A stretch of 64,000 nt of DNA from Carpediemonas membranifera BICM (lineage: Eukaryota; Protista; Fornicata): NCBI GenBank assembly GCA_019828565.1, contig JAHDYR010000041.1:37615-101614 (forward strand), read 5' to 3'. Each line of letters opens with the position of its first letter. Position 1 is the stretch's first letter. The notes below the pieces were generated by a model. That model had not been told where the DNA came from, ran no database searches, and saw only the letters and a program-made list of their open reading frames with translations. The translations under genes were made by a program, and so were the position numbers. Below are positions 1 to 59,681 of this stretch, one piece after another.

Positions 1-416
1 TCTCCTGAACTGAGCGCCAGGGGGCGGAGGTGGCGTTGGCGTGGGGCGTGGAGGCGCTGGGGGCGGGGGTGGCGTTGATATTGGGCAATTACATAAAGTG
101 CACGGTGCTTGGAATTTCATTCCAACCTCAAAATGGCGGGAAAGCATTATTGGAAGGAACTAGTGGCAGCTATGCGGTTCTTTATACTGCAAAAGCAACC
201 AGCTGTCGTCAAAAGCGCGCCATCTACCATCAATAACCAACATCTGCGTTGCACTCAGGCCATAAGCACCAAGAAATGGTTTGTTAACCGATAATGCCCT
301 GCGAGGGCTAGGAGGTATCAGAAAGTGTTTTACACAGGTACAAGACGTTCACATTCAGTTCTCTCCTTCGTCTGACGAAGTAAGTACCACTTGGCAAATT
401 CTTACATAGGTTCAGC

Positions 417-2456
417 ATGAGCAGTTTAGGGTCGAGGACCTCCCAGTTATCCGTCCTCACGCCGAAAGTCCGGAGGGGCAGCAGCTCCCGTCCGACGACT
501 CCTTGTTCTCGACCCGCCGGAGGCGAGCGTATACGACCAGTGGACCGCCCCGTCCACTCCGGACCTCACACGGGTGCGCCGGGAGCTCTTTCTACCGTCT
601 GTAGAAAGCGACGATGATGACACGTTCATCGTGCCAGAGCCTGAGGGCGACGACGTCGATATGGAGTGGAACCCCGGTTACACATCCGACGAGGTTTGGG
701 AGAAATATCAGAGAAAACCAGAGAATCTACGCAAAAACAGTGGAGTACCATCAGAGAACTACTAGACAGCTACCTGATCAAGGAAGGAAACGCCCGGACC
801 TTACTACTGCGCAGAAGTGACGACTTTTCCGAAAAGTCCTTCGGCGCAAGCTCCACAGCCCGCAAGGAAGTACTAACCAACGTCAGAAGGATCCTCACAG
901 CCTCAGGAGTGACCGACAACAGGGACACCATCCTCAGACATCCGAACGGCATCCACGGGCTTCGCGACCTCTTCATCATGGTCACAGAGGCCCTAGACCC
1001 CAGAGAAGCAGAGATTCAGCGCATCGCCAGCTCTAACGAGCCCACATCAGTGAGACCAGGGCACAAGGACATGGCCAGATGGCCCAAGGAGCAGTCCATC
1101 GAACAAGCAGTCCTGCAACCCAGAGGCCAGAACCCCATTCAGTGGGACAACGTCAGAGACAGCGTCGAAAACAGAGAGACTGGCATGTACTCGGTCATCA
1201 CAGGGACAGCAGAGGATGAAGCCCCCGAGTGCCTCAGCGGCGAGCAAGTGTGGGACCCGTCCAACAGAGGACCCATCACCAGAGTAGCCATAGAGCAAGA
1301 GGATGGCACCTTCAGAGTTCTACTGGACCTGGAAGACACGGAGGCATGGCCCATCACCAGGTACATGGAAGAGGCAAGAGACATCCTGAGACTGCAGGCA
1401 CCATAGGCACCAGTGGTGTGGCAAGCGGCATGGAATAGCTCAGGAGTAGACACCAGCGGCCGTAGCGGTATCCGGAAGCGAGGGGAAGAGACGCCGCTCA
1501 GTGGCAAGCCGCAGTTTGCAGTAGTCAGAGCCGAAATCATCGGAGCAGAGATCAGCCGTGACAAGAGAGCCGAACATGCCTCCCAGGAGGACAGGTCTGC
1601 TAGCACGGACATCGACAGCGACGTAGAGATGACGAGGCCGGACAGTATCTGTGGTAGCCAAGCCCCGGCAACCCCAGCGTCTCAGAGGATGAACAGAGTC
1701 AGCGCCAACAAGAGAACCACAAGGACCCCCAAGCGGCTGGTGCTGGGGGCGAGGCATCAGGCAAGCGTACTCAGCTTCCTATAGACAGTGCGAACAGAGA
1801 CAAGGAGGTGCCGCCGAGGATTAGCCTGGAAGACATCGTCCAAGAGCATATCAGAGATCAGCAGGAGGCCAGAAGGATGGCGGGCGAAGGGAGGAGCCAG
1901 CCCGAGGTCAGCAGCCTGCCTGTCACAGAGACCCAGCCGAGTCAGACTAGTCCTAGCAGCGATCGACTTCGAGTGTGGCTACACAGGCAGCTCAAGACAA
2001 GGCACACCAGCGATCCCAGTCGAAGGAGGCATTGTCCTGATAGATGTGGACAGCAGTGAAGTGGTCAGCCACGGTATGTTCTACCAGGACATGCCGCTCA
2101 ACAGAGTCGAGCAGTCAAGGCACACATCATGGGCCGTCACAGGCCTACCACCAGCGACCTTCGTAGATATAGCGACAGGCAGACCCCCCAGAGACCTGGA
2201 GCAGCACGTCCACACCTTCCAGGCGTGGGGCGACCGTCTAGCGACGGAGCTCAAAGCGTATGAGAGAAGAGAAGGCTGCAGAGTCCACCTGTTCGCCAAG
2301 GGAAAGCACATGGAGATGTTCCACCTCACGGATGCAGTGAACGGCTTAGCCGCAGAGAGCAGAGAGTACTTCGCGCAGAGACTAGTGGACGAGAACGAGC
2401 TGCCAACGCTGCTGGTCAGGGCTAGACCCGACCTCGACCAGAGATTCAGAGTCAAT
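417..2456 (+). pseudogene. Disrupted ORF1 of a non-LTR retrotransposon (diverged relative of 55892-57951), including the N-terminal part of a Maelstrom-like DEDDh domain
   Basis: 666-1406 aligns by eye with 55892+ (QKQWSTIRELLDSYL/QKEWDTIRELLTDYL; EEARDILRLQAP/EEGRDILRLQAP). TAG at 1404 where the other copy has GAG. 1788-2456 has IDFECG..PVEGG..WAVTGLPP..AKGKHME. Similarity stops near 2456. Confidence 0.85.
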
Positions 2457-2557: not shown

Positions 2558-2623
2558 GTGATGACGGGAACCCCGAGCTCTGCCGTGATGACGGGAACCC
2601 CGAGCTCCGCCGTGATGACGGGA
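2558..2623. repeat. 27-bp tandem repeat (about 2.4 copies)
   Basis: gtgatgacgggaaccccgagctc(t/c)gcc twice, then gtgatgacggga. Confidence 0.9.
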
Positions 2624-2625
2624 TG

Positions 2626-2646
2626 GTAAGGTAAGGTAAGGTAAGG
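2626..2646. repeat. (GTAAG)4 tract flanked by a 12-bp direct repeat
   Basis: gatgacgggatg at 2614-2625 and 2647-2658. Confidence 0.9.
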
Positions 2647-3446
2647 GATGACGGGATGTTTTGCTTCACTTCGATGCTTTCTGCTATCCTCGCTTCTTCT
2701 CCTTCTTTCCGTCCTTCCGTCTGCTCATACGCAGTTCCTTATGTGTATGAGCATGATGCTGCACAGGACGAGGTTCTTGAAAACCCGTCCGGCGAGGCGA
2801 TGCCAATAACCTCTGTGGCACTCCTTGTGCATGTCTGCCGCACAACGGAGGACGAGACCCTCCTCGTGGAGCCGAGTGTTTACTTCGTGTACAGAGGCAC
2901 TTCAGGCGGCCGGACCCTCATGGAGCATGACGTTCACCGCGCGGAGCGGATGTTGTTGGTCCGTGACGACCTCAACCTCGACTCGGTCTGCCCCCACTGG
3001 CTGACACCGTTGAGCGGCGTGCGCCCCCCGAGCTCACAAACAACCTCGCGCTCACCATCGACCCAGCGCTGAAGTTCTTCTGCCCGGCGCACTCGTCAGA
3101 CAACCTGTGCCTCATCGAGGCTCTCATCTTCGTCTCGGCGATGATTGACGAGGCTGTCCGCTTCACGCACGACGGGGCACACCAGGCGGTTGGTCCATGT
3201 TAGGGAGTCGCTGTTGGCCGAAGATTACGGCATCGGCGAGGAGTTCCGCGAGCGTCTGAGGACGGAGAGCTTCCTCCCCAACTCGGACCTGGCCGAGTTG
3301 TTCCGCCTTGACTGGAGCGATATTGTTGGACACAAGGGGATGGGTGATGTTCACGTCTGCTCCTGGACCGTGAATAATCGTGATATATGAGATAGGCTCT
3401 CCAGAGCCTCAGATGCCATCGCCGCGCTCCGGGACCGCGCACAGCA

Positions 3447-4340
3447 ATGGACCGACGTCAGAGCGTCGCCTTCAACGCCGCGGTCCTTGACTGCCTAACG
3501 CCGGGGAACTCCGCCCAGGCCACCGCTCTCCTTCGCGATATCCATCCATGCGCCCCGGTGGCGCACAAGCTTGACGGCTTGATCTCGATGTTCGTCATTA
3601 GAGCAGAGATCGTGGATGACATCCTTCCTGATACGGTCAAGCGCGAGTTACTATGGGAACTCCTCCCGGTAGCCTTTATCTCGCGCATCCAACACCTCCG
3701 CCATGAAGAGGACTTTGATGCCTTTATCGATGGTCTATACGAGGCCGTCGAAGACCTCGAAGAGCTCGAAGTGGAGAAGAAGGCCTTTGAGGCCGCCGAC
3801 ATTTCCGCTCGCAGCCGTATGCGCCTTAACCTGCGCACCACCAAGAACCCTACCCAGGACCACCAGCCAGCCGGCCACATGCCCCAGGCCAACCCGATCA
3901 ACCAGAACAAGCCCCAACACCAGCACCCCGACCTCGACCGCGCCGCCATCAAGCAGTATAGGAGAGACCACAACCTGTGCCTGTACTGCGGCGGCGAGGG
4001 TCATCGGATTGCCGATTGCCCAAACAAGGGCCCGAACAAGATCAAGCGTGAGGCCGTACGGGCCCTGGATGAAGATACCACGCCCTTCGATCCCGCGGAC
4101 GCTGTAGAGCCCCTCATGGCGCTCGATACGGCACTGACCCCTGATTCCGAGGACAGCACCGTCCACTGGTGTGACGTCAGCCGGGTGTGCCTCAAGCCGT
4201 ACACCACCCGAGCCAGGGACCTGCTCGACACAGGCGCCGCCAACGCCTACGTGTCTGAAGAGTTCGCAAAGGCGGCCGTGGAAGCCACGGGCATCGCCGC
4301 ATCCCGCATAAACCGGACCGTGGACACCGCTGCCTCAACT
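3447..4340 (+). pseudogene. Ty3/gypsy-like gag (CCHC knuckle) and aspartic protease remnant
   Basis: CLYCGGEGHRIADC zinc knuckle followed by LLDTGA; no RT downstream. Confidence 0.8.
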
Positions 4341-4829: not shown

Positions 4830-5340
4830 ATGACACGACCAAGAGTAAGAAAGAGTAAGGAAGAATATGATGTCGGCAGACGTCGTCGGTCTCGCCAGGC
4901 CCGGGTCGGCCTCCGCGTCACGGAACTCGGATTGGAGATGGCACGACGTCATTTATCACCCGGGAGGGCAGCTCAAAGGCTGATTCACTCGGTGAAATCC
5001 ATGCTGTGCATCACAAGGCAGAGTTGCTTGAGCGGAAAATGTCTGGCAGGCTTATACAGCATTGTGTTCGCGATGCACGATCAGCTCATTGTAGCAGTAT
5101 GCGTGTGCAATCGCCTCGCATATTCCAGCGACCTTACTTGCGCTTTTTGGCGGTCGCTGGTGGCTACCGTAGCCGTGGCATCGGCCGCGCCCTGGTTGAG
5201 TCTGTGTGTAACTGGGGATGGTCAGTAAGACTGTTTGCCATTCAGTCGGCAGTTTCATTTTATCTCAGCGTTGGGTTCAACGTGGATGGCTCTGAGACCT
5301 TTGATGGGACAGTGTCAATGTTCTATCGCAGCAGAACGCG
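4830..5340 (+). pseudogene. GNAT acetyltransferase-like sequence, frameshifted
   Basis: YLRFLAVAGGYRSRGIGRALV (acetyl-CoA motif A) and AVSFYLSVGF (motif B); 5' boundary uncertain. Confidence 0.7.
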
Positions 5341-5759
5341 TCACGCGGTGTCGGAAGTCGCGTGTTGTGTCAGCACGGCTGACGTAACAGACAATCCCAA
5401 GACTCTCCTGCCGTTCATCAGTGTTGATGAGACTGGGATGTGCATCGAGTACGGCGTTGGCGAGCAGTGTGTCGTGGGGTCGGATCAGGTTTGCCGCGGT
5501 CTGCACACCCGCGAGTTTGTACCGCCTCATGTGTGGGTAGGGTTCACTGGTCACGTGTGCCACCCTGACCGTGACGTTTCAACAGATGCTCTGTATATCG
5601 TTGGGCTGTCTTCCCACCAACGCCGATTGGTCCACTGACTCGTCGCGCTGGACGGGCCTTCTTGAGCTGGTCAAGGCCGAGCCCGACCTTAACACGCTTC
5701 CTCGCGGCCTGGAGGTCTTCTCCCCTTTCTGCCTCCACGCGCCCAACCCAGTTGTCGCC

Positions 5760-6551
5760 CGTCCCCCCGAGACCCAGCCCGCTCGAGCCGGAGTTGACTC
5801 AGCGCGTCAACATGGACGTCATCCGTGCGCTTCACCGCGACTTCCCCGATCTGCTGGATCGGGATGTCACCTCCCCCGATGCCTTCCGCCGCGCGTTCGG
5901 CATCCCCGCTTCGCTATGCATCGTCTGCGGTAAGCGGGTGCTGAAGGGGTTCAGCAGCACGCCTCTGCCCACTATCGCCGGATCAAGAAAGTCAGGATCC
6001 CGACGGGCACGCGATATGTCATCAGGTGCAGGAACGTCCACGCGCAAGTTGACCAAGTCAACCCACGGTCCGCCGCGCGAGGTCGTGCTTACCAAGCACG
6101 CCGACCTCAGCTGGGTGTTGGACGCGCCATGTATGACGTCCTCTGGATGGTCCAGAACACGTTGCGTCTGGAGGACTACCTCTCTCCCCGTTCTGTGCGT
6201 GAGCAGGGTACGCTGCGCCACCTCGGCTTCACCGCCGACACTCTGCTGGCAGTCATCCTGCACCTGGGCTCTCGCTGGAGCCACCACCTGTTCTCGGTTG
6301 AGGAGTCCGAGCGCATGGCCGAGGAGATGGAGGCTGACCTCCAGGCCGACCCGAACTGGAGCGGTGAGGGCACCCCGCTCTGCTTCTACTTTGAGCACGA
6401 CTGGGCTCAACATGACCGCCTGCCCAAGGGTTGGGCACTCCCCCGCGAGGTCATGATCCTCCGGGTCAACCGGGACATGACCTTCACCTGCCAGACGAGG
6501 TTTCACAGTCTGTGCCCGATATTGCCGTATACATACCTCTCCCTCCAGTGA
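5760..6551 (+). pseudogene. Unknown CxxC protein family, copy 1 (frameshifted)
   Basis: PLEPELTQRVN..PDAFRRAFGIPASLCIVCG resembles PLHLELTRALN..PAALRRAMDLPPATCLVCG near 7960-8100. Confidence 0.5.
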
Positions 6552-6579: not shown

Positions 6580-7516
6580 GGGCAATTCTGGCAAATGGAA
6601 ATTATGGACGAAAATGACCCCCCATGGTGTGACTCACAGATGGGGCTCCACGCCGCGGGCTTGCCCTCCCGCATACACTCGCCAACCGCCAGCAGCTGCT
6701 GGGTCGTCCAAGTGTATCATCTAGGCTCAATGTCCTAGGTCCATCTGATGTCCGCGCGGCAGTCTCACACCGCCCGCGCGCTCCTAGCTAGAAGCCGGGT
6801 TCCGCGCCGTGTAAGGTGGCGCGGATGTCCCGGTGTGCAGCAAGGGCCAGAGGCCAATGCAATACCACGGGTCCGAAGACGCCGTGGCGCACAGCTAGGA
6901 TTTTGACATCATTAGATGGTGGCGGACTTACCTTGTTGCCGCTCCAGGGTCCCGTCGGAGCACCTGATTGATGTTGTTTAGTTCGGCACGAAGAAGTGAC
7001 CGAAACTGAGAGAGAGTGAGGAATCGTGATCTATATGTGGTAAATGAGCATCCTAAACAGATATAGCAGCAGAGGTGCTTGGAGAGCGATTATATTCGTG
7101 CGCGCGAAGGAATGTGTGAAAAAAGTGGCGTCGAAAAAAGAGATACAGAAAAAAAAGGATGACATATTCTGCATATTCTGCGCGGCCATCTCGAGGACGG
7201 CAGACGTTGCGTTCAAGGCTGTTAGTGGGGCAACCGCACTATATCCAGGCCTAGTTGATGGGTTATGCCATTGGGAGCGGGCTAAGTCATCGTCCATTTC
7301 GTCAAATGAAGGTTGGGAGGAGTGATTTCGCTGTCTTCTGCCTCATCGTATGGTTGCTCGTTGATGTCCATGCTTCAACCAGAGTCAACTGCAGGTAAAC
7401 AAGCTGGTGCACTTTTAGACTGTGGGCTCGGCAGACCCAGCTGCTGGTACACAGCCTCCTACACACGCTGCCCCATCGTTTGCAGCATGTAACCTCATCG
7501 CGGAAGCTCACCCCGG
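6580..7516 (+). repeat. Interspersed repeat, copy 1
   Basis: About 6643-7375 is near-identical to about 20469-21202; flanks are similar but diverged. Confidence 0.92.
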
Positions 7517-7596
7517 AAGTACAGGTAAGGTTACCTCCCGGTTATCACGCCGCACGCGTTCCGATACTGGGCCATTAATGGCGCACAGCCCTCGCT

Positions 7597-8530
7597 GTGC
7601 CGGGCCTATACCTGTTCGAAGCCTCTGAGTACGAGAGAGAGGCTGGTGACCGTCATGTCGCTGACGGCTGCGTGGAGACGCAGGCACTTTTTGTGCTCAC
7701 CTTCGGAGAGAAGCAGGACTGTGAGTTCTCCACTGCCACAGTGCTCTTCCGCACCAACGGGACCCTCTTCACCCACAAGGTCTGTTGCGCTGCCTCTCGT
7801 TCGGAGTGCGCGTTGCAGTTCTACGACTTCGACGCCGCTGTCGATGAGGCCGAGGTGAGAGCCATCCAGGCCGCCTCTGAGCTCGAGGGCCTCAAGCTCT
7901 ACCTCGCTCCCGCCCCCGCCCCCGAGACGCCTCAGTCGATCGCCATCCCCGATGACGACAGTCCTCTACATCTAGAGTTGACCCGGGCTTTAAACCCCGA
8001 GAGCGTCAAGGCCTGGATGGGTCGACCCGACCTGGTCAGCGACCCCGCCGCCCTCCGCCGTGCCATGGACTTGCCCCCTGCCACCTGCCTTGTCTGCGGT
8101 GGCAGTCTGTCTTCTGACCGTAACTTTGTGTGCACCAACACGGTCACCGAGCCCGACCCCCGCAACCCGGGCAAGACGAAGAAGGTCGTCTGCGGCATGG
8201 AGGGCAAGAAGCTCAACAGCAAGGCCGTCAACAAGCGTGTGCTCCGGCTTTCCAAGAATGCAAACTTCAGCATTCTCTGGGCGAAGGTCCCCGAAGTCCC
8301 CCCGAAGTTGACAACCGCGACTATGCCATGGCCCCCTTCGACTGCAAGAAGGGTGTGGCCTGTTTTGAGCCGACCTTCCACAACGCTGAGCCTCACGCCC
8401 GCGCGGCCAAGTGCGTCCTCAACCTGGCCTCGCGCCAGACGCTCTGCCTGCTCGTTAACACCGAGATGGAGTGCATCATGGGCTTGACCCTTTCCATCCC
8501 TTACCTTACCAATGAGATTGGCTCTGTCAC
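7597..8530 (+). pseudogene. Unknown CxxC protein family, copy 2 (frameshift near 8280)
   Basis: Similarity to 5760-5940; coding-like sequence continues in a second frame (EVDNRDYAMAPFDCKKG). Confidence 0.5.
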
Positions 8531-8627
8531 GCCAGTCAGGATCATCCAACCAACAGTCAACATCCCGATGACCGTAAGAACAAGCATCGATTTATCTCTC
8601 ATGAGCGCCATAAACAGGGCACGACCC

Positions 8628-10184
8628 TCACATGAACCGTGCCACAATCCGACTCGACCTTGCCTTGTGCCGCTTGAGCAGTCCCCTGTACGACGCCATG
8701 GCGTAGTGCATCCGGTTCCTCAGCCGGCTTCCCCCCACCGCACGGGCTGCCCGAGCCCTGGCGGCCACGGACATGCCCGCATTTCCCACAGCATATGGGC
8801 GACCGCGGGTGAGTTCGACGAGCTCCTTGGTGCACTGTGTCGCCGTGCTGACGAGGGCGAGGTGGGTCTGGGCGGCGGGGCCGAATGATGCAGGGATGGC
8901 GGCCGTCGCGAGCACGGTCTCGTCGATCTGCGCACAGAGGTGAACCAGTTGACCCGCAGAGACGACGCCGTGGGTCAGGGCGGCGGCCCTCAGCAGGCCG
9001 GGCAGACCAGTCAGAGTGTGCAGGCTAGGGTACGTCCGGGCAATGGCGTCCAGCCGCTTGGCCCAGGCCGAGACGGGCTCGGGCCTGAGCTCGTGTCTGA
9101 GCCGGTCAACGGCGACACCGGTGTCAACGCAGTAGGACACCTCCGCGAGGGTCTTGATGAGGCGGGTGGCGATCTTGTCGTGTACGGCGGGGTTGCTGGC
9201 CCGAACCTGGTCGAGCATCTCCTCAAGGTGCACCGCGAGTACGACTGAGCACAGGGCGTGGACAGCTGCCCACAGCGCTACGGGGCTATCAGTCGTGGGT
9301 GCAGGGACCATTGCTGTTACAGGTCCCGCCATGGCGGCCGGGTGTGGCTCGGAGGACACCAGCTGGGACTCAGTGAGGTCCAGCCCGCCTGTGGCGACCA
9401 AGGCCTCGATGTCCGCGAGAGCGAGGTAGTGGGACAGCAGCAGGGGTCTGCGGGCCTGGACGAGGGCGAGCGCGTCCATGAATAACTGTGGTGTGGGCAT
9501 GGCGGATCTGCAGGGGCAGGTGAACACCGCGTGCATGCAGTGGATCGCAGACACGTGGAGCAGGCCCGCCAGGACGGCGCACGGGAGCACAGAGAAGAGG
9601 GGGAAGGTGAAGACGAGGCGCAGAGCAATGAGGGGCACGAGAGGGGCGACTGTGGTGTACATTGCAGAGGCAGGGAGGGGTGCCCGGATGGCATCGAAGA
9701 TGCGGGTGGGAATGGGGGCAGGCCGCAGCGTCATGGCGTCGACTCGGGCCGACATGGCCAGAAGTGTGATGGAGGTAACCACTGCTGGCGGGATGACGCT
9801 TATACGGTGGGATGCGACGGTGAGGAAGAGGATTGCGGCCCAAATCATGTGGCATGACATGGCAACAAGGGTCACACGGTCGAAAACGGAGAGGATCCAG
9901 AGAAAAGTCCACCGAATGCGGTAGCTGGGGACCTTAAAGAGCTTCACAAACGTGAAGGTAAGCGGTATTGCCGCGAAACTGGCAATGAATGCTGGAATCA
10001 AGGAAACGAAGTGGAATGACCGCAATAGCGAGTAGAAGCTGATTAGCACGACATGGAACAAGCTAAACCACACAGTAGCACTATAAATACGCCACGTGCG
10101 TTCGAGTTCGGCCATCTGTCTGAGCAATCGACTTTGGCAGAGTTTTCTCGCCGCAACAAGGACACTAGCCGGCATACAACCCAT
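8628..10184 (-). CDS. Hypothetical multi-pass membrane protein
   Basis: 518-aa ORF with several hydrophobic segments in the N-terminal half; start uncertain. Confidence 0.6.
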   Translation of the reverse strand: MGCMPASVLVAARKLCQSRLLRQMAELERTWRIYSATVWFSLFHVVLISFYSLLRSFHFVSLIPAFIASFAAIPLTFTFVKLFKVPSYRIRWTFLWILSVFDRVTLVAMSCHMIWAAILFLTVASHRISVIPPAVVTSITLLAMSARVDAMTLRPAPIPTRIFDAIRAPLPASAMYTTVAPLVPLIALRLVFTFPLFSVLPCAVLAGLLHVSAIHCMHAVFTCPCRSAMPTPQLFMDALALVQARRPLLLSHYLALADIEALVATGGLDLTESQLVSSEPHPAAMAGPVTAMVPAPTTDSPVALWAAVHALCSVVLAVHLEEMLDQVRASNPAVHDKIATRLIKTLAEVSYCVDTGVAVDRLRHELRPEPVSAWAKRLDAIARTYPSLHTLTGLPGLLRAAALTHGVVSAGQLVHLCAQIDETVLATAAIPASFGPAAQTHLALVSTATQCTKELVELTRGRPYAVGNAGMSVAARARAARAVGGSRLRNRMHYAMASYRGLLKRHKARSSRIVARFM

Positions 10185-20403: not shown

Positions 20404-21423
20404 GGGGGCAAATCTGACAAATCAATATGATCAGGCGAATATGACCCCCCAGGCGTGTGAATCCAATAGGGCTCCACGCCGCGGGCTTGCCCTCCCGCAT
20501 ACACTCGCCAACCGCCAGCAGCTGCTGGGTCGTCCAAGTGTATCATCTAGGCTCAATGTCCTAGGTCCATCTGATGTCCGCGCGGCAGTCTCACACCGCC
20601 CGCGCGCTCCTAGCTAGAAGCCGGGTTCCGCGCCGTGCAAGGTGGCGCGGATGTCCCGGTGTGCAGCAAGGGCCAGAGGCCAATGCAATACCACGGGTCC
20701 GAAGACGCCGTGGCGCACAGCTAGGATTTTGACATCATTAGATGGTGGCGGACTTACCTTGTTGCCGCTCCAGGGTCCCGTCGGAGCACCTGATTGATGT
20801 TGTTTAGTTCGGCACGAAGAAGTGACCGAAACTGAGAGAGAGTGAGGAATCGTGATCTATATGTGGTAAATGAGCATCCTAAACAGATATAGCAGCAGAG
20901 GTGCTTGGAGAGCGATTATATTCGTGCGCGCGAAGGAATGTGTGAAAAAAGTGGCGTCGAAAAAAGAGATACAGAAAAAAAAAAGATGACACATTCTGCA
21001 TATTCTGCGCGGCCATCTCGAGGACGGCAGACGTTGCGTTCAAGGCTGTTAGTGGGGCAACCGCACTATATCCAGGCCTAGTTGATGGGTTATGCCATTG
21101 GGAGCGGGCTAAGTCATCGTCCATTTCGTCAAATGAAGGTTGGGAGGAGTGATTTCGCTGTCTTCTGCCTCATCGTATGGTTGCTCGTTGATGTCCATGC
21201 TTTCATTAAACCAGACTCAACAGCAAAACATTGTGCTGCACTTTTAGACTGGCAGAGGGTGGGCTCGGCAGACCCCAGCTGCTGGTACACAGCCTCCTGC
21301 ACACGCTGCCCCATCGTTTGCAGCAGTGTTGCTCGCCCTATCCCTGCCCCCGAAGCCATCCATCGGGTGGGCCACCTACGGACTGCTGAGGATCTGTAAC
21401 CTCATCGCGGAAGCTCACCCCGG
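20404..21423 (+). repeat. Interspersed repeat, copy 2
   Basis: Matches 6580-7516; has about 70 extra bp near 21325-21394. Confidence 0.92.
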
Positions 21424-24874: not shown

Positions 24875-25192
24875 TCACCCCTCCAGGCCGGCCTTCTCGG
24901 CAGCCCGGTCCTCCCGCATCATCTTCACGGCTCTGGCGACTATTCTCTGTCGCCACTCGGCCTCCTCCTCGGCCCCGCCGCGGTCCATCATCGGCGGCAC
25001 CTGGACGATGGTGGCACGCTCGTTATCCATAGCAATGACTGCGCTCTTCATCTGATCGCTGATGATGGTCTTATCGACTGAAACCTGCGCAGCACTCGTT
25101 TTCTCCTCCTTGTTCCCGTACTGCTCGTAATCAGACACAAATCCGAAGCTATCAGACTCATAACTGTCATATGCATCAGACTCGTCGCTCAT
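24875..25192 (-). CDS. Hypothetical acidic protein
   Basis: About 105-aa ORF; 5' part duplicated at 27224-27602. Confidence 0.5.
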   Translation of the reverse strand: MSDESDAYDSYESDSFGFVSDYEQYGNKEEKTSAAQVSVDKTIISDQMKSAVIAMDNERATIVQVPPMMDRGGAEEEAEWRQRIVARAVKMMREDRAAEKAGLEG

Positions 25193-25603
25193 TTCCCTTC
25201 CAAAGCTCCAAACCGACAGACCTCTGTCCGTCGCACCAATCAAGCTATACATACCTCATGTAACAAAGTAAATTAAGCCTGCTAGCCTTTGTAACACCCT
25301 CTCAGTCGATCCCACACTCAAGCTGCTGGGGCCGGGGCCGGGATGATGGCGTCGTGAAGGCCAGCTCGATCAGAGGGACGGCCTTCAAGGCATGATTCTG
25401 GCTCAACGGGGCGTCATCTCTCGCCCTCCTTTACCCGCAAGACGTTGTAGCAACGACAGAAGAACTGCTGGACCAAGCCGTCCAGCTGCTCCTGGGCTCA
25501 AGGAGGCCGCATTCAAGGCTCTTCCACGAGGACCACGAGGATATTGCGAAGTGTTTACGTTAATAGGATATGTAATACTGACCAACACTTCTCGACCGAC
25601 TCT

Positions 25604-27223: not shown

Positions 27224-27602
27224 ACTCGGCCTCCTCCTCGGCCCCGTCGCGGTCCATCATCGGCGGCACCTGGACGATGGTGGCACGCTCGTTATCCATA
27301 GCAATGACTGCGCTCTTCATCTGATCGCTGATGATGGTCTTATCGACTGAAACCTGCGCAGCACTCGTTTTCTCCTCCTTGTTCCCGTACTGCTCGTAAT
27401 CAGACACAAATCCGAAGCTATCAGACTCATAACTGTCATATGCATCAGACTCGTCGCTCATTTCCCTTCCAAAGCTCCAAACCGACAGACCTCTGTCCGT
27501 CGCACCAATCAAGCTATACATACCTCATGTAACAAAGTAAATTAAGCCTGCTAGCCTTTGCAACACCCTCTCAGTCGATCCCACACTCAAGCTGCTGGGG
27601 CC
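27224..27602. repeat. Local ~380-bp duplication of 24955-25333
   Basis: Near-identical sequence with very few substitutions. Confidence 0.95.
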
Positions 27603-27657
27603 AGGCCGCCGTTGGGATCCGGCTAGATCATCCAAGCTGGCAGGAACCGCTAATTTA

Positions 27658-35363: not shown

Positions 35364-38300
35364 ATGTTCGGTAATATTTCTCTGCCGACTCTGAGCGTTG
35401 AGACATTGACTAGCGAAACCTGGCGCTCATCTAAGAGGGATGCCGCCCGAATCAAGGCGTTGTATCCCGCCGCCAAGCTGGCTGTCCTCCTCCCCAATGA
35501 CCTGCAGGACATCATCGAGGACACTCTCAACGTAGACCTGGCGAAGGCAAATGACGACAAGATTGACGAATACGTCAGCAAGTTCCTTGCTCCGGTGGAC
35601 AAATTGTCCCTTGTCAAAGAGCTCGAGGCCTTCACCTGCCAGGTATCTGAAAAAAGAATCACCTCCATTCGCGCGTACGTCAGCGCGTTCTCAGCAGTTT
35701 TCTCTAAGGCCGAAGACATCGAAGAGTCCGACTCGGACGAGGACGAAGAGGAACAAGAAGAGGACGAAGAAGACATTTCCCCCTTTGAGAAGAACGCGCG
35801 TAAGATCTTCCTTCAGGGGATCCGCCCATCCACTTTCCGCAAGGTCCTGGACTTTGAACTCAAGGAGCATCCTAAGAGGAAGTCACTTGCCGATGCATAC
35901 GAGCTGAGCATTGCCCTCGCTCAAGAAGATGACGACGCTCGGGCTAAGGCCATTCGCTTTGGTCACTACCAGGCCGGAAAGTCCTCCACCCGAAAGAAAG
36001 GAACGGCCGCAGGAGGCCAACCGCCTCGCCTCCCGGTCCCGGGCGCAGTTGCCTCAGGGGCCCCGGAGAATTCTTCCACTCTCGAAAAGAAAGAAAGAAA
36101 GAAATTTATGGTGCTTGGATTCTGACCCCGGACTGAGCTTGTTTCCCGTTGTCTTGGAGCTGAGTGCCCCGGGGTACTGCCTATTTCCCGTGGCAAACTG
36201 GTCAGCAGCGTTTGCCTTGGGCTTTCGGTGCTACTGTCTCCGCGGAAAGCCGATTCCAATCGCCCCAGAGGCCCTGCGGCCATCTCCGTGCAAATATGCT
36301 TTCCTGTCTCCCTGAAAGTCCGGCAACTATCCGGGGAGCCTGGGGGTCTGTCCTCGGTGCTTCCACAGGCAGGATCGTCCTGCAGAACCTTGGGTGGCGT
36401 GGGTCAGGGCATGGGTGGTGTACCCCCAGGCACTAGGCCTGGTTGTCCTGTTACCCCTTACAACATTTCGCTTGCACTACATGTCCTTGGTTTCCCATGT
36501 CGTTAACAAGGGCGGCAGGGGCACCAAGTCTTCCACTCTCAAGCCGAACGACGTCAACCCAGCTTTGAAGCCTCCACATCGTGCCTGTGGCAAGTGCGGC
36601 GGATGGCATTGGGATAATCAGTGCCCCAATGGGGCCCCAATGCGCTCTCGCCAAGAAGGAGGCGGCCTCCGGTCCAACCCGAAGAAGAAGGAGCCAATCG
36701 AGGCTAATCTCCTGGACACGGACCCGATGAGCCACTCAAAGTGTCTGGTCGTATAAACGACCAAGAGTATTCCTTTATTATTGACACTGGAGCACCAAAA
36801 TCTATCATCTCCGCTGCGTCAGCAGAGGCCCTTGGCCTACAGACAGTGACCGGCCCGACCCTCCGCTTCAGAATGGCGAACGGTTCCATTTCGACAACTA
36901 ACCACTATACTGAGGCCTGGTTACACCTCACGCTGGCGGGAGCCCCAACGCGGTTTAAGGCGAAGTTCGCAATCTTCAGTGGGGACCGCGAGAAAATCCT
37001 TATTGGCACCGACATTCTTCGTGTACTCGGGCTTCTCACGAAGGATTCCTTATTCCTCCAGCTCGTAGCCGAAAATCTGAGCAAGGAGGACGGGGACGAC
37101 ATTCCGCTGAGTTTGAACCAGTTAGACGTCTCGGAGGACGTTGGTGCTGTTGAAATTCCCGAATCCGCGAGCGCCACGCTCCGAAGCGAGGTACGAGCGC
37201 TACTTGCTGAGTATTCCACGTTGTTCGGCCCCATTCCGGCTCAAGGAGCCAAGGTTGAACCTATGCGGATCCGATTGAATGACCCGGACGCCCTGGTCCA
37301 GGAACGAGCCCGGAGACTATCAGGGGAACGACGCCTTCAGGTGCGGGAAGAAGTAACCCGCCTACGCCACCTTGGCATCACCAGGAACAGCGTCGGACCG
37401 TTCTCCTCCCCGATCGTGGTAGTGGATAAGAAGAACGGCGCCATACGCCTCTGTGTGGACTACAAAGCTCAACACCCTCACCATTCGTGACCATTTTCCC
37501 CTTCCCGACTTGAAAACCTTCGTGCAGGAGGCGGCGGGGGCTCAATTCTTCGCCAGCTTGGACTTGACGTCCGGGTACCATCAGATGCCCCTCCTCGAGG
37601 AAGACAGAACTATGACGGCGTTTGTAACACCTGACGACTACGAGGAGTTCAACCGAGTCCCATTCGGGCTGACTAACGCTCCGAGTTATTTCCAGCGTAC
37701 CATGCAATCCATCCTCGCCCCGGTACTCCACCGGGGGGTGCTGGTCTATATTGACGACATCTTAGTCTACGCCCAATCTGAGGAGGAACTTATAGCACGC
37801 TTAGAGCAAACCTTCCAGTTGCTGACAAAGTATGACCTTCGGCTTAGCCCGGCAAAATGTGTGATCGGCGCGGAGGAGTTAGACATCGTGGGCTTCCACC
37901 TTTCCCGCGAGGGGAAGAGCATCGACAAGCGACGGATTGAAGCACTCACGTCGATAGAGGCTCCGAGCAATGTTTCAGGGGTCAGAACACTCTTAGGGAT
38001 GTTTAATTACGTGATCGACTTCATCCCAGCCGCGGCGGACCTTGTGGACCCCCTCTATGAGCTGATCAGGAACGCCGGTGAGCCATTCGTATGGGGACCA
38101 CGCCAAGAGGAAGCCCTCGTGGCCCTGAGAGAGGCGGTAGCCCAAGAGACCGTCCTGGATCAGCCTGATCCCAGCCTGCCATGGGACGTTTACACTGACG
38201 CAAGCGACCGGGGGCTTGGGGCCGTAATCACCAGGGAGAGGGCGCGAATCGCCGCCTGGTCGCCTTCGTTTCGAAATTATTTAACGCGACGCAGAGGCGC

Positions 38301-40243: not shown

Positions 40244-40908
40244 GGGGTGGATGAAGACCAACAGGCCTGTACTAGAATAGATAGAACAGTGCCCCATCGA
40301 GCTCAAAAGGAGCGACTATGGCCCCTGTCCAACGAACCAGAAGGTTACATTCAGGGTGCACCGCCGGTTATGAGTGGGAGCTCCATAGCCACAGGGACTA
40401 GAGAACGAACAATATGGAGCTTAGATTTACAGGGAAAGAGACGGAGAGCGCAGGGAAGGATGTCGGAGCATCGATGGAATGGAATTTTCGCCAGCTCAGA
40501 GGGAAGGAAGGATCACCGGCGAACAACAGCAGGGGGCCCAGATAGAGGCCGCGAACACACTACGAATGGCGTAACAACGGCCAAAAATCCAGGGACGGTG
40601 TGGCATGAAAATGGCGATGCATTTTTAGAACCGCGCCATTCCGCCGCGAGCCCCAAAACAAACGATCAGGGAAAAATGAGAAAACAGGGAGGTCCGTGCG
40701 GGGACAGTACCTGCGCAGGGCCATGCTGACCGATTTTCGCGTCGATGCATTTGCCAAGCTTTTTTCATGCAGGGAAAAGAGAACAACCAGATGAGAGTGG
40801 AGATACCAGATAAGATCAGGGAATCCGCTCAAAAAGAGTGGGACACGATTAGAGAGCTACTAACGGACTACTTGATGGAAGAGAAGGGCACCAGAACGCT
40901 ACTACTGC
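40244..40908 (+). mobile_element. 5' region of the non-LTR element, cut by an element A LTR
   Basis: About 40327-40908 is near-identical to about 55454-56033. Confidence 0.92.
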
Positions 40909-41029
40909 TGTCGTGGGTCTTACCCAATATTTACATAGTTGTATTATTTACATCGTCTTCAGGTTTCTGTCGACACATTTGGTGTCGTCTCTTTTCCCTG
41001 TAAAGCTTTCTTGTCCCTAACGGACTACA
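40909..41029 (+). repeat. Element A LTR 1
   Basis: tgtcgtggg..ggactaca. Confidence 0.95.
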
Positions 41030-41047
41030 TTTCTAGAAATTCAAGCC

Positions 41048-44000: not shown

Positions 44001-45000
44001 CACAGTCATGATCGACATGTGCAGTCGGTGGACTGAGCTAGTCGCATCTTCGAGTACCACCGGCGCGGCAGCAGCGGACGCCCTGGTCAACAACTGGATA
44101 TTGCGTTTCGGGTGCCCTGAGGTTCTCCAATCCGACGGAGGACCAGAGTTCAAGAACCAACTCTTCAAGCGCATCGCAGATGAGATGGGGTTCAAGATCC
44201 ATATTACCACGGCTCACCACCCGCAATCCAATGGGATGGTAGAGCGCGCCAACCAGCAAGTATTACGCATCCTCAAGGCGCGTAAGTTTCAGCTCAGAGG
44301 GTCAACCTGGATCGAGAATCTACCTGTCGCCCAGTTCATCGTTAATTCATCCCCGCGCACGTCTACACGCCTGTCACCAGCCGAGATAGTTCTCGGGTAC
44401 GACCTGAGAATACCACAGAACGTGTATGTGACTGATTCTAGTACAGCGAGCGCGAGTGAGTCTCACAGGGAAGCGGCCGCAGCGGCTGTCCAACTCGCCA
44501 GCAGCCGAGTCCAGGCGATGAGAGAGGACGCCCTCGCAAAGGCTACTGCCTCGAGGAATGAGATTATTAGCAGGTTCGTCCTAGTCAAGTACCCCTCTAG
44601 ACCACCGAACAAGTTGTCACCTGGATGGAGAGGGCCAATGCGAAGGCTCGCCGGAGTGAAACAACACGGTGTCGTTGTCGCGTATAAGGTTTTAGACCTA
44701 GCTGAGAAGGACAACTCGAAAGCGATCACGGTAGACGCATCGAGAGTTCGGAAGTTCAATCCCGGCAGGCTGACAGAAGATCAGATCAAAGCACTCGCAG
44801 CCACGGCTGACGACGAGTGGGAAGTTGAGCGAATCAGTCGATCTCGAGGTCGAGGCCCGATGTCCAAGCGGGAATACCTCGTCCATTGGGCTGGGTGCGA
44901 AGACGAAGAGGCTACGTGGCAAGACTATTCGTCAGTCAAGGACCTAGAGGCGCTAGACATATTCCTGAAGTCAGACGAGGCCAAGCGAGCCGGTCTGTAA
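41048..45000 (+). pseudogene. Element A gag-pol copy 1 (two +1 indels relative to copy 2)
   Basis: Extra T near 42082 and extra G near 43400. Confidence 0.93.
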
Positions 45001-45033
45001 ACCTTCAGCAGCTACTCAATCCAAACCTTTATC

Positions 45034-46281: not shown

Positions 46282-46931
46282 TGCTCGTTCGTCACTTCCC
46301 GTTTTCACTGAGAAAACAACAACTCGAAAGAAGTAGCAACCAACCTCAATGGAACCTGAAAGACACTGTTTTACGGCTAATTCAAGCCCGATTGATGTTA
46401 TTAAGGATGAACGCGGCCTTTTGCAGCCGCGAGAGAGAACGTCGCACCGTCGAGAGCAAAAAACGCGAGAACTCGCGAACGAAGCCGAATTGAGGCTTCT
46501 AATGACGTTTTTCGATCTCTATGTAATAAGGACGGCGACGTGAAGTACATACCAAGAGAAACACAAAGATCATCACAGTGAGCAGTTTTAGGCGCTCATT
46601 TGATCTAATCAATATTCAAACGGCCGTTTTACGACCGTGGAGGGGCGGAATGCCTCACGTAAGATCATTCTAATTACACAGCGCGCTAACAAGTGGTACC
46701 ACGATAGGATTTTGAGATCCGCAGATATTTTCCGAATCTTTCAGATTCACCCCGCTAATTCTGGCTCCCGACTTGAACAAGGCATTCACCCTGTACCCTG
46801 CCATGGTACAGAGTCTCGTAGACCAATGAGTGGCATCGGAGGTCTCGGGACTGGTCAAGTCCCTCATCGCACATTCGTTCGAGTGGCATACGCCTGAGGC
46901 CATGGCCCCTTTGGGGTCCATGGAGGGGCGG

Positions 46932-47052: not shown

Positions 47053-47070
47053 TTTCTAGAAATTCAAGCC

Positions 47071-51021: not shown

Positions 51022-51054
51022 ACCTTCAGCAGCTACTCAATCCAAACCTTTATC

Positions 51055-55453: not shown

Positions 55454-55891
55454 GTCCAACGAACCAGAAGGTTACATTCAGGGTGCACCGCCGGTTATGA
55501 GTGGGAGCTCCATAGCCACAGGGACTAGAGAACGAACAATATGGAGCTTAGATTTACAGGGAAAGAGACGGAGAGCGCAGGGAAGGATGTCGGAGCATCG
55601 ATGGAATGGAATTTTCGCCAGCTCAGAGGGAAGGAAGGATCACCGGCGAACAACAGCAGGGGCCCAGATAGAGGCCGCGAACACACTACGAATGGCGTAA
55701 CAACGGCCAAAATCCAGGGACGGTGTGGCATGAAAATGGCGATGCATTTTTAGAACCGCGCCATTCCGCCGCGAGCCCCAAAACAAACGATCAGGGAAAA
55801 ATGAGAAAACAGGGAGGTCCGTGCGGGGACAGTACCTGCGCAGGGCCATGCTGACCGATTTTCGCGTCGATGCATTTGCCAAGCTTTTTTC

Positions 55892-57951
55892 ATGCAGGGA
55901 AAAGAGAACAACCAGATGAGAGTGGAGATACCAGATAAGATCAGGGAATCCGCTCAAAAAGAGTGGGACACGATTAGAGAGCTACTAACGGACTACTTGA
56001 TGGAAGAGAAGGGCACCAGAACGCTACTACTGCGTCGCGCAGAAGATTTTTCAGGGAGATCGTTCGGAGCTAGCTCCAGAGCACGAAAAGAGGTGATACT
56101 GAATGCGAGGAGAGTGCTACGTGCCGCAGGGATCACCAACAACAGAGACGAGATCCTCCGTAACCCCAACGGAATCCTAGGGCTTCGAGACATCTTCTAC
56201 GCAATGACAGAGGCCTTAGACCCGAGAGAGGACGAAGAACGGCGCCTAGCAGAGGCCAAGGAGAACGTCACCATCCAACCAGGGCACAGGGACATGAGCA
56301 AGTGGCCTTCCGACCACAAGATCGAAGAGGCCATCCTCCAACCGAGAGAACAGAGCAACATCGAGTGGGACAGTGAGAGAGACAGCATTGAGGGCAGAGA
56401 GACGGGCACATTCACGCTCACATCAGGGTATGGAGATGAGAAAGCCGTCGAGGCAATCGCAGGAGAGGAGGTGTGGGACCCCACTAACCAGGGCCTGGTC
56501 ACCAGGATCGCTATGGAGCAGGACGATGGCACCTACAAGGTCCTCATCGACATCAGAGATTGCAGAGCATGGCAGATCACCAGATTCATGGAGGAAGGCA
56601 GGGACATCCTCAGGTTGCAGGCCCCGGAGGCGCCGGCGGTCTGGCAGGCAGCTTGGTGCAAGACAGGAGTCAACACGGAGGGCAGAGGCGCAATAAGGGC
56701 ACAAGGACAGGAGACGCCGCTCAGCAACAAGCTCGTCTTCTCTGACGTCAGGGCCAGGGTGATCAATGCCACCAGCCGCCGCCAAAAGAGGGACAGGGAA
56801 GAAGAGTCAGACAACGAGAGCGGCGCACAGACCAGCCAAGAGGAAGACCCCAAACCCAAGGTCGTGTTGACACAAGCGGAAGGAGTGAGCGCCAGAAGGG
56901 GCCTTGGAGCCGAGCTTGATCAGCAGGAAGAAGAGAGCATACCCCGAGCATCAGAGGGAAGTGCATCAGCAGGGAGCCTACCGGAGGCATTGCAGAGTCA
57001 GGGTCAGAAGAAGCTCATCCTCGGTTCTATCGACTTCGAGTGTGGAGATCCTGGGAGTGAGAGGGCAGGGATCAGTGCGGTGCCGACAGAGGGGGGCTCG
57101 TGCTAGTGGACGTCGAGACGGGGGAGGTCGTTGGCCATGGCCACGGCCTCTTCTATGAGCCCAACCTGCCGGCCAACAAGGTGGACCAGAGCAGATACGC
57201 GACGTGGGCAGTGACGGGGATTCCCCCAGCGACGTTCGTGGAAGTGGACACAGGGGAGGTGCCGATGGACTATCAGCAGCACTTCAGCAGATTTAGAGAG
57301 TGGGCCACGCGGCTCGCAGCCAAGCTGAGAGACAGAGAGACCAGGGAGAACTGGAAGCTAGTCCTTCATGCCAAGGGCGTCCACATGGAGAAGTTCCTCC
57401 TGACGAACGAGGTCAACGGGCTCAACAGGGACACCAGGGACTTCTTTAGAATGAGGCTGGTGGACGATAGCGAGCTGGCCGACGCCATCGAGGAGCTCGC
57501 CCCGGATAAGGCAAGAGAGTACAGGGCAAACTACGAGATCAAGAACTACAGGGAGATGGCAGATATATGGGCCAGCCAATGGCAGCGCAGGGAGCTCACG
57601 AAGGGGGCCTGTCCGTACCACAGGCACACTGCAGGGTGCTACCATTGTGCGCTGGCAGATGCAACGTTGTTCGCGGCGAAGGTGTGGGGCATGATGCTGA
57701 AGAAGATGAGCACGCCGGATCTGGAGAGTGCGATGGGTAACGCTTTCAACAGCATGTATGACACGGTCAGGGACGCAGGGGTATTCTTTGAGAGTGATAG
57801 TGACAGTTGTGAGTTCTTTTCTTTTAATCCAACCCTGGCTCCCACCCAGGGTCCGGCATTAGCTGAAATGCACTGCCGGTGGGCTGTGGCGGCAGCCAAA
57901 GGGGGGGTCACGCCAATGCGCCCCCTCCTAAGTATCCCTGCCCGAAGGTAA
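55892..57951 (+). CDS. Non-LTR ORF1: unknown N-terminal domain plus Maelstrom-like DEDDh nuclease (one indel in the G run near 57095)
   Basis: IDFEC..PTEGG..VTGIPP..HAKGVHME..CPYH..HCALAD; the copy near 2020 reads through this junction in frame. Confidence 0.82.
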
Positions 57952-58085
57952 GGATGGTCACCAGGGTAACCCATAGTTGGCCCGCCATGGGTAACCGGAG
58001 CCGGCACGAAGGCCCCGTGACGGGACAAGGGCAGATTGCAGGGAATTTCCGAAAATTCGCAGGATAGGAAAGACGGAGTACAAGA

Positions 58086-59681
58086 ATGGAAACGATCAAG
58101 ATAGCGAGCCTGAACACTGAGGGACACATCGGGAAGGGAAAGGACTTCACGGCCTCAATGGCAACGGCTATAAGGATGAAACTGAGCGACACAGATGCAG
58201 TATGCATCCAAGAAACGTGGAGGACGGCGAATACGAGGGTACACAACTTCATAGACTTCGACTACGCAATGGCAGGGAAGGAAACAGAGGAGGAGCTAGC
58301 TATGGACAACGAGAGGAGGAAGAAAGAAGCCCAAAGCCAGCGCCGAATAGATGCCCAGCTGGGCATAGCAGGGAGCAGTAGCCGGACGCCCAGGACGAGG
58401 GGTACTAGAGAAGGAGTGGGCACAATCATCAACCCAAGAGCAAGAGGGAGCTGGGACGTAGGCATCACAGATAGCTTATCAGGGAGGATACAGGTGAGCA
58501 TACTCAGAACCCATAGGGACATCCTGGTGATCAACGTGTATGGCCCACCGGTCGGCCACGGAAGGGAGGAGAAGGACGAGTTCAGGGACGGAATAAGGAG
58601 CATTCTGGAGATGAAAGGAGAGATGGAAACAATCATCATAGGGGACTGGAACCTCGACCCCAAAAGGATAGCCACAATGGCAAGATGGAAGGACCTGATC
58701 AGGGACTATAAGCTGGGAGCAGTGATCCCCATGGAAGGTACCCTCACCAAGGGAACTACCACTCCGGACTTCGCGCTGGTATCATCAGGGATCAGAGGAG
58801 CAAGGATAGAAGTACTGGATGCTAGTCGACTCGGAGTCTGGGGGTCAGCCCACAACATGATAAGACTGGAATGGAGGGAACAACGGATCCAACGGACTAC
58901 AAAGAGAGAGGAAGTCCTAGACATACCGGGCGTCAGAGTGTGGAACATGAGGAAGAAGGCTGAACGCACATCAGTCAGAAGACTGCACCGTTTTAAGAGC
59001 CTGGATGAGTGGGAGGAGGATATCAGGAAGGATATGGGCGAGCCGTCAGGTCACCCAGGCAGTGGAGACAGGGAAGAGGTCATCAAAGAAAAGGTGTGGT
59101 CGGAACTCCGGCACACACCATGGACAGAAGAGGGAAACAAGACCAGAAGTGAGATCATGAAGCGTGAGCTACAGGCCTTCTGGGGAAAACGCAGGGAAGA
59201 GTGGATCCAGGACCTCAGCCGGAGCGCGAAGGAAGGATACAAAGCATCCAGGTCCATGGTGGAAGCAGCGGTAAGAAGATGGTGGTGTGAAAACCAGTTC
59301 AAGGGCATGCCAGAGAGCATACTGAAGGACGGGAAGATTACCACCAACAAGGAAGAAATAGGTAAGATCCTCCTACAACAGTATGCAGGAGTGAGCAGGG
59401 GCAGGGAACCGGAGTGGAAGGATAGAGGCAATGGAAAGAGGGAGGACGAATTTAAGGAGAGAGAAATACGAGAAGCGATCAGAAGGACAAAGAGGGACAC
59501 TGCACCGGGACCGGACCACACTACAGGGGACATGCTCAGGGACACAGATGACCAGGGGATCGCTCAGATAACTAGGCTCATGAACAGGGTATACAGGGAG
59601 GGCAAGATCCCGACAACATGGAAGTATGTAATCCAGGGAAGAGTGGGATCAAGGAGAGATACAGGGAACTGGGAGAGATGA
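58086..59681 (+). pseudogene. Non-LTR ORF2: APE endonuclease and pre-RT region, truncated
   Basis: SLN, IQET, NVYGP, GDWN, PDF, SAH (usually SDH); APGPD..IPTTWK, then no RT motifs. Confidence 0.92.

Follow-up and report, generated by a model that had tools for sequence, protein, structure and literature searches.

The window, by which we mean the whole 64-kb stretch of DNA that was analysed from Carpediemonas membranifera, a free-living metamonad, contains three copies of one retroelement, here called A, B and B'. Their parts are listed in Table 1 together with the sequences that adjoin copy A. The window also carries genes for ribosomal protein L4, Ran and a RuvB-like protein, among which all three standard stop codons are used.

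Table 1. Parts of the three element copies, and the neighbours of copy A, in the 64-kb window
Feature	Position	Strand	Remarks
Copy A, ORF1 N-terminal domain	702..1556	+	59% identity to copy B over 284 codons; TAG at 1404
Copy A, acidic, low-complexity linker	1557..1946	+	156 nt longer than copy B linker; TAG at 1782 in main frame
Copy A, partial nuclease (first two thirds)	1947..2456	+	ExoI D-x-E, zinc Glu and ExoII-position Glu present
Short tandem repeats	2558..2660	.	directly past the truncation point of copy A
Ty3 gag/protease remnant	3396-4334		3' of copy A; with unrelated sequence, stands where ORF2 would be
Copy B', 5' fragment	40327..40908	+	99.5% identical to copy B; cut by Ty3 LTR at 40909
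Copy B, 5' region (probable element start)	55454..55891	+	start common to copy B'; abuts truncated end of Ty3 pol
Copy B, ORF1 N-terminal domain and linker	55892..57019	+	
Copy B, entire nuclease domain	57020..57780	+	C-x2-H-x7-H-C-x3-D zinc/catalytic motif at 57610-57660
Copy B, spacer 5' of ORF2	57781..58076	+	pyrimidine tract, then hairpins
Copy B, truncated ORF2	58077..59630	+	APE endonuclease and start of RT region

Copies of the element in the window

The stretch at 666-2456 had been taken, from its letters alone, for an open reading frame of a second, diverged subfamily sharing the ORF1 architecture of copy B. It is a decayed, 3'-truncated copy of what is very probably the ORF1 of an APE-type LINE, and the open reading frame does not hold up. 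Homology to copy B begins near 702; position 666 itself is a GTG, and there is no ATG start. As assembled, TAG codons stand in frame in both the N-terminal domain and the linker, and at the first of these the proteins P0001, P0004 and P0013 carry Glu. P0014, 89% identical to copy A, aligns to it across two frames as assembled, so that a frameshift lies directly 5' of the nuclease, near the 3' end of the linker; a second probably lies further 5' in the linker. A deletion of two codons relative to P0014 sits in a conserved strand. Copy A breaks off near 2456, 5' of the C-x2-H-x7-H-C-x3-D motif, and this truncation has removed the catalytic His and Asp together with the C-H-C ligands of the zinc site. 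No APE or RT sequence was found 3' of copy A within the window.

That copy A belongs to a diverged subfamily is borne out by its alignment to copy B, 702-1509 against 55925-56732, at only 66.8% DNA identity over 813 columns. The N-terminal domain of about 300 residues is kept in both copies, as had been stated, and so are all four motifs singled out earlier, IDFEC, PxEGG, WAVTGxPP and AKGxHME; the two nucleases show 49-62% amino-acid identity over two blocks. The linker had been described as diverged beyond recognition. Between A and B this is so, with no significant similarity in any of three frames, but the start of the copy A linker aligns with the linker of P0004, a third subfamily, better than in any of 500 shuffles. 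Part of the apparent divergence between the A and B linkers is therefore frameshift.

Copies B and B' begin at the identical base and have different flanks. As assembled, the frame of the copy B nuclease shifts by one base within a run of G near 57097, a site that P0001 and P0005 read through. The ORF1 of copy B is cut at 57780; P0015 and P0025, 98-99% identical to it up to that point, extend 421-435 residues further, so copy B lacks roughly the final 40% of ORF1. One contig of run X1 terminates exactly at 57780, which may be the signature of a branch point or of low depth, and no contig of that run bridges ORF1 and ORF2 of copy B. Insertion of a LINE into an unrelated gene at 57780 was considered and set aside, since, given the layout of three further loci, L002-L004 (see below), ORF1 is more likely to have lost an internal segment.

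The ORF2 of copy B matches Pfam Exo_endo_phos at E 0.003, under the cut-off, and is 55-78% identical to six gene models, one of which passes PF14529 and one RVT_1. P0008, a paralogue 59% identical to the window ORF2, passes PF14529. P0011, which overlaps the end of the window ORF2 at 67% identity, matches RVT_1 at 1.7e-28 and has human L1 ORF2p as its best PDB match (4.5e-18). The RT region of copy B starts at 59.2-59.6 kb, and the RT core itself lies outside the window. The overlap of these paralogous gene models supports a non-LTR RT as the probable continuation of the APE.

The intact gene and its relatives

A nuclease profile built from copies A and B was searched against 1.84 billion representatives and returned 13 matches. 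Ten were looked up: three C. membranifera models, six NCBI proteins and one protein from Rhizamoeba. Four of the NCBI relatives have lengths of 1,129-1,250 residues. The full gene encodes, in order, the N-terminal domain, the low-complexity linker, the nuclease and a third domain, also conserved; after these come a second region of low complexity, a segment that resembles a coiled coil and has weak Pfam coiled-coil matches, and a tail rich in Gln, Gly and Pro. To judge from these proteins, an intact gene would encode 1,100-1,250 residues. The architecture of N-terminal domain, linker and nuclease proposed in the sequence-only reading is indeed common to copies A and B, but it would be the first half of the gene only.

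The C. membranifera genome holds at least four subfamilies, A, B, P0004 and P0013, the first three of which are 54-60% identical to one another. Six B-type models on six contigs that differ in length (P0001, P0002, P0003, P0005, P0006 and P0025) are 97-100% identical; these are the near-identical interspersed copies expected of a LINE. The gene models for this species were published from a repeat-masked assembly (PMC8516963), and the masking may explain the absence of an intact model. Searches of GTDB genomes and viral contigs gave no relatives, with one alignment tried. A word-indexed homologue search with the nuclease returned no match at 133-426 residues, and a phage tblastn returned a single match, at E 6.

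The N-terminal domain could not be assigned to any family when it was first noted, and it still matches none in sequence or profile searches of Pfam, PHROGs, NCBIfam and PDB. It has no usable match in the ESM Atlas. The structure prediction that had been proposed as a check gave an AlphaFold model with pLDDT 44, which had no significant match by Foldseek (PDB, viral) or by a second fold search. A profile of four N-terminal domains matches P0016 and the protein at L003 over its first 100 positions only, at 9-17 bits against 3.2 for the best of 60 shuffles; nothing above the shuffles was found in P0017, P0021 or P0022. An RRM had been suggested in this domain by eye. No Pfam or PDB profile supports it, although the model is poor and a divergent RRM is possible. 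Over the whole of ORF1, Pfam and PDB profiles likewise match no RRM, CCHC knuckle, PHD or esterase.

A predicted nuclease domain of Maelstrom type

Direct comparison of the nuclease with Pfam, PHROGs, NCBIfam and PDB gave no assignment, and its AlphaFold model (pLDDT 44) found no significant match by Foldseek (PDB, viral) or by a second fold search. In the ESM Atlas, residues 418-592 of P0005 have feature scores of 0.90-0.92 to DnaQ-like exonucleases, and the ten best family-bearing matches all belong to one clan (RNase_T, RNase_H_2, Rv2179c). Comparison of predicted structures in the same resource gives TM 0.55-0.60, with the top match passing the bar for naming PF00929; feature and structure results count as one source. 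The predicted fold is DEDDh (DnaQ, RNase H-like).

A relationship between the MAEL and DnaQ families has been described earlier (PMC2628886). Searched directly, none of 11 family members matches Pfam Maelstrom (PF13017), HMMER filters dropping weak matches. The connection is made by P0024 of Rhizamoeba saxonica, the weakest profile match (E 9e-4), which passes Pfam Maelstrom at 5.7e-19 and whose top three matches in PDB, weak as they are (E 0.02-0.14), all fall on Maelstrom. The family profile aligns with P0024 over 179 columns at probability 97 and E 1e-10. The motifs matched are D-x-E, the P-x-E glutamate, A-K-G-x2-M-E and C-x2-H-x7-H-C-A-L-A-D.

The nuclease contains the E-C-H-C set of zinc ligands: strand 2 supplies the Glu, C-x2-H the first Cys and the His, and a Cys further on completes the set. 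In Bombyx Maelstrom the corresponding ligands are E137, C290, H293 and C302, and R306 stands in place of the last catalytic Asp (PMC4408791). The C-terminal spacing in copy B (C-x2-H, His to Cys +9, Cys to Asp +4) is the same in P0024 and equals that of H293/C302/R306 in Bombyx. The zinc Glu lies 19 residues past the first Asp in copy B and 15 in Bombyx. A scan of viral contigs with a degenerate form of the zinc motif gave one match, a probable shadow frame, which was dismissed as chance.

Catalytic positions are well preserved in the sequences that cover them. The ExoI D-x-E is found in nine of ten, P0013 being without the first Asp; the catalytic His of the ExoIII motif, H-x4-D, in eight of nine, P0020 being without it; and the C..H..C..D series in all nine. 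At the ExoII position, located by alignment, all 12 sequences have Glu rather than Asp, as does P0024. Metazoan Maelstrom proteins have an N-terminal HMG box and have lost the catalytic residues; in ORF1 no HMG box is matched and the catalytic residues are kept. The domain appears best described as Maelstrom-type and not as a Maelstrom orthologue, with one bridging protein, P0024, carrying the link to MAEL. Its residues suggest that the nuclease is probably active in intact copies.

Association with an APE-type ORF2

The sequence-only reading would have been refuted if no RT ORF ever followed this family elsewhere in the genome, and this outcome did not arise. An APE ORF2 lies on the same strand 3' of the family ORF at four of the five loci that have downstream DNA (copy B, L002, L003 and L004); L002-L004 were found through nuclease-bearing proteins and come from one other assembly, so that the four loci amount to two lineages in total. 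The fifth locus, copy A, has none, and at no locus does an RT core follow directly, the sequences of L002-L004 ending within or soon after the APE, so that ORF1 and a full RT do not occur together in any one of them. Nor was a 3' tail seen at any locus.

Copy B is cut just before its spacer, and taken alone it could be a chance junction. Loci L002, L003 and L004 settle most of this doubt. In each the family ORF, which in L003 has a frameshift within the nuclease, stops at its own stop codon, and an APE ORF starts about 350-370 nt further on, on the same strand. These APEs are related to that of the window (tblastn E 5e-7, 1e-6 and 2e-28 in a 15-kb database). Identities between copy B and L002-L004 are 0.40-0.44 for the nuclease and 0.36-0.39 for the APE; among L002-L004 they are 0.52-0.72 and 0.65-0.79. 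Over these six pairs the divergence of the two proteins is concordant. The codon usage of copy B ORF1 correlates at 0.77 with that of its APE ORF, against 0.37-0.56 with four Ty3 pols. The accession of P0003, a B-type ORF1 fragment, is three away from that of an APE model sharing no more than 55% identity with the copy B APE, which is unexpected under strict one-to-one pairing of ORF1 and APE.

The spacers of L002-L004 have a pyrimidine tract and three hairpins in common. That of copy B looks alike by eye, and the spacer model of L002-L004 scores it at E 2.9, behind two other sites in the window. Covariation among these three spacers does not reach significance (49 of 500 shuffles). A ribozyme 5' of ORF2 was considered and rejected: there was no Rfam match, a folding z of -1.5, and no match to our own, unvalidated HDV-like descriptor.

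The gene might be a separate mobile gene, or a passenger of Ty3, that lies beside LINE pieces in clusters of transposons. All three window copies adjoin Ty3 sequence, Ty3 pieces form part of the gene models P0005 and P0019, the cut in the copy B ORF at 57780 just 5' of the spacer resembles an insertion, and the copy B spacer has no significant match to the others. We consider this very unlikely, given that the ORFs of L002-L004 have their own stops, an APE at a fixed distance, a common spacer and no match to the window Ty3 proteins, that two B copies with different flanks share one 5' start, and that nuclease and APE have diverged in step. Thus the gene is very probably the ORF1 of a LINE that carries a Maelstrom-type domain.

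Purifying selection

The earlier suggestion of long-term selection on the nuclease inside the element, rather than chance capture, came with a codon alignment of the two copies as its check, and a dN/dS near 1 was not seen. By counting, dN is 0.32 and dS 1.58 between the N-terminal domains of A and B, synonymous sites in the nuclease are near saturation, and divergence at codon position 3 is far above that at positions 1 and 2. A purpose-written maximum-likelihood codon model, from which gaps, stop codons and the linker were excluded, gives dN/dS of 0.083 for the N-terminal domain (upper 95% bound 0.14, 284 codons) and 0.046 for the nuclease (upper 95% bound 0.11, 167 codons); a value of 1 is rejected at p<1e-26 for each. 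In the second lineage, L002 against L003 gives 0.049 for the nuclease and 0.048 for the third domain, while the estimate for the N-terminal domain is saturated and indicates only a value far below 1. Selection far from neutrality in two lineages bears the suggestion out.

This purifying selection dates from the period when the subfamilies were active and is not a property of copy A today. Low dN/dS between A and B might be taken to mean that the host has domesticated this piece of the element and that copy A still works as a gene. The selection it records acted during divergence of the subfamilies, and the coding sequence of copy A is interrupted by stops and a frameshift, has lost two codons from a conserved strand and lacks the catalytic C-terminus; we regard domestication as extremely improbable.

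Proposed function of the nuclease

Our best explanation of the family, to which we assign a probability of about 0.5, is that ORF1 supplies a Maelstrom-type DEDDh 3'-5' exoribonuclease that degrades duplex RNA of the element and so blunts silencing by the host. LINE ORF2 proteins copy their element by target-primed reverse transcription, and the ORF2p of this element would do likewise. ORF1p, to go by other ORF1 proteins, would oligomerise through its coiled coil and coat the element RNA. The nuclease, which on its conserved catalytic residues would be an active exoribonuclease in intact copies, would then remove double-stranded or small duplex RNA that might otherwise trigger or guide silencing. 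Substrate and purpose are the least certain part of this explanation, and by our analysis the chance that counter-silencing is the main job of the nuclease may be about even. Copy A, without the zinc and ExoIII residues, would be capable neither of counter-silencing nor of trimming 3' ends.

Counter-silencing is favoured because TbRIF4 prefers double-stranded RNA (PMC3359990), because the arenavirus ExoN, a structural neighbour of Maelstrom, suppresses innate immune signalling (PMC7968707), and because suppression of silencing has been reported for a LINE-borne enzyme, the viral-type helicase of TRAS ORF2 (PMC5563155). Entamoeba MAEL, which keeps both the catalytic and the zinc residues, is an active ribonuclease on single-stranded RNA (PMC4408791), and a duplex preference is thus no rule of the MAEL family. 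A literature search found no report of RNA silencing in C. membranifera.

The strongest competitor of counter-silencing is a role in trimming the element's own RNA at its 3' end. In this alternative an active nuclease would serve the copying cycle, shortening read-through transcripts as far as a structured and protected 3' end that ORF2p needs for priming, or clearing template RNA after reverse transcription. ORF1 proteins work in cis on their own RNA, so the benefit of such a role would remain with the encoding copy; on the other side, to our knowledge most APE-type LINEs function without a nuclease domain of this kind. The conserved catalytic residues would suit a copying-cycle role too, as would the action of Entamoeba MAEL on single-stranded RNA and the 3'-end processing proposed for bdelloid DEDDy ORFs (PMC5408684, PMC6431247). 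We rate it as unlikely, but as the first alternative to consider.

Less likely again is that the Maelstrom-type domain is mainly an RNA-binding module of ORF1p, taking the place of an RRM or zinc knuckle, with catalysis dispensable. The ORF1 proteins of LINEs are known for packaging RNA, and the domains they carry are RRM, zinc knuckle, PHD or esterase. The absence of RRM, CCHC, PHD and esterase matches from ORF1 would fit such a replacement, and P0013 and P0020 are each without one catalytic residue, although these two may be decayed copies. Bombyx MAEL binds single-stranded RNA and does not cut it (PMC4408791). RNA-binding MAELs of metazoans have, by contrast, lost catalytic residues, which in this family are kept across lineages only 17-27% identical over whole proteins.

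Relation to known systems

Counter-silencing by an ORF1-borne nuclease forms part of a wider proposal that we advance tentatively, at somewhat less than even odds: a LINE lineage of metamonad-type protists took an active exoribonuclease of Maelstrom type, the class of enzyme that the host itself turns on transposons, into ORF1p and uses it as a counter-silencing weapon. This would be a new type of ORF1 that has persisted over deep divergence, and it would hint at repeated moves of the clade of MAEL and arenavirus nucleases between hosts and parasites. If true, this would add an ORF1 type and describe a transposon armed with a class of enzyme that hosts use against transposons. It would also offer a compact, testable case for the role of catalytically intact protist MAEL domains and for LINE-encoded suppressors of RNA silencing. 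The flagged stretch is only a dead copy, and it is the family that gives the finding its value.

A literature search, mostly of open-access papers and without Repbase, found no LINE ORF1 described as having a DEDD or MAEL domain, though an earlier description is possible. The C. membranifera retroelement literature, including the accessible text of bioRxiv 10.64898/2026.05.21.726589, likewise yielded no such ORF1 domain. LINE ORF1 proteins have been classified into types I-V, namely RRM with CCHC; coiled coil with RRM and CTD; PHD; esterase; and unclassified (PMC4120745), in a paper whose main text does not use the word exonuclease. The present gene resembles these types in being a multi-domain ORF 5' of an APE-RT with a coiled coil, and type IV in particular shows that an ORF1 can bear a captured enzyme. 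It differs in having a nuclease as its enzyme and a C-terminal coiled coil, and none of the listed domains is detected.

Entamoeba EhMael (EHI_192630, PMC4408791), TbRIF4 (PMC3359990) and P0024 share with the family the DEDDh-type and E-C-H-C residues at matching spacing, and for P0024 the profile alignment spans the whole domain. All three are host genes, RIF4 acting in silencing, whereas here the domain lies within a retrotransposon ORF1 of 1,100-1,250 residues, between two domains of no matched family.

Adintovirus and Polinton maps (PMC8502044, Supplementary Fig. S2) label a gene MAEL in four occurrences, and the comparison is by label alone. There it is a stand-alone gene of a DNA virus-like element, and the main text of that paper does not discuss it. 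Bdelloid Juno/Vesta LTR elements and Athena/Terminon elements (PMC5408684, PMC6431247) are reported to carry an exonuclease of DnaQ fold with intact residues in a DEED variant, and a C-H-C motif was noted in Vesta2 and Vesta5. These belong to other classes of retroelement, and the exonuclease is encoded by a separate extra ORF rather than ORF1 and is DEDDy, not DEDDh. The viral SF1 helicase domains in ORF1 or ORF2 of insect LINEs (PMC5563155) are likewise RNA-processing enzymes within a LINE ORF, of viral origin and unrelated fold.

Spacer between ORF1 and ORF2 in the relative loci

Three distant relatives from one other assembly (L002, L003 and L004), in which an APE ORF2 follows ORF1 on the same strand, share a conserved segment between the two frames (see table), with a mean column identity of 80%. 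A motif starting with GT is present in all three spacers, as are a pyrimidine tract and a set of three hairpins, among which one has a UNCG-type loop. Rfam returned no match to the spacers. These elements could represent a splice, re-initiation or IRES-like signal serving ORF2.

Features of the window and of the three relative loci
Feature	Location	Remarks
ORF1-ORF2 spacer, conserved segment	L002:5292-5398; L003:4694-4795; L004:2280-2378	
GNAT acetyltransferase-like frame	window 4871-5638	Pfam Acetyltransf_7, E 5e-6
Two frameshifted frames	window 5575-6456; 7579-8888	alike by eye around C-x2-C-G motif
Repeat pair	window 6580-7487 and 20406-21325	95% identical
Repeat pair	window 24955-25336 and 27224-27605	99% identical
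Ty3 LTR elements, two in tandem	window 40909-53074	
Antisense frames, 494 codons, one per tandem Ty3 element	window 45034-46518; 51055-52539	

Junctions of the Ty3 array

Copy B', a 5' fragment of the LINE, is cut off by an array of two Ty3 elements, 99.9% identical to each other, with three copies of a 122-bp LTR; the junctions lie at window 40908/40909 and 53074/53075. Because further Ty3 pol, not the remainder of copy B', stands beyond the last LTR, the arrangement suggests LTR-LTR recombination or a mis-join. Pfam gave no match for the antisense frames; P0019, a gene model fused to Ty3 pieces, resembles them in its C-terminal part at 34% identity.

Additional observations

P0024, a MAEL protein of Rhizamoeba saxonica and so from outside the window, retains its catalytic and zinc residues, with a weak RRM/XS-like N-terminus in place of an HMG box.

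The GNAT-like frame directly follows a Ty3 gag remnant, and the two frameshifted frames had no Pfam match. Most of the 95% identical repeat lacks a long ORF. Window 59847-60430, 3' of copy B's truncated ORF2, is an inverted relative (72-76%) of 36088-36520, a non-coding stretch that is flanked by a gag-like ORF and a protease ORF.

Upstream of copy A, the broken ORF1, are a 30-nt GT..AG intron-like stretch (window 380-409) and an acidic stop-free frame with Thr-Pro sites (508-765), which reaches the start of homology and is possibly an N-terminal extension split off by frameshift. Short GGTAA-type runs occur at 2625, adjoining copy A's break, 8499 and 32730, and a similar run occurs at the window's end (63978).
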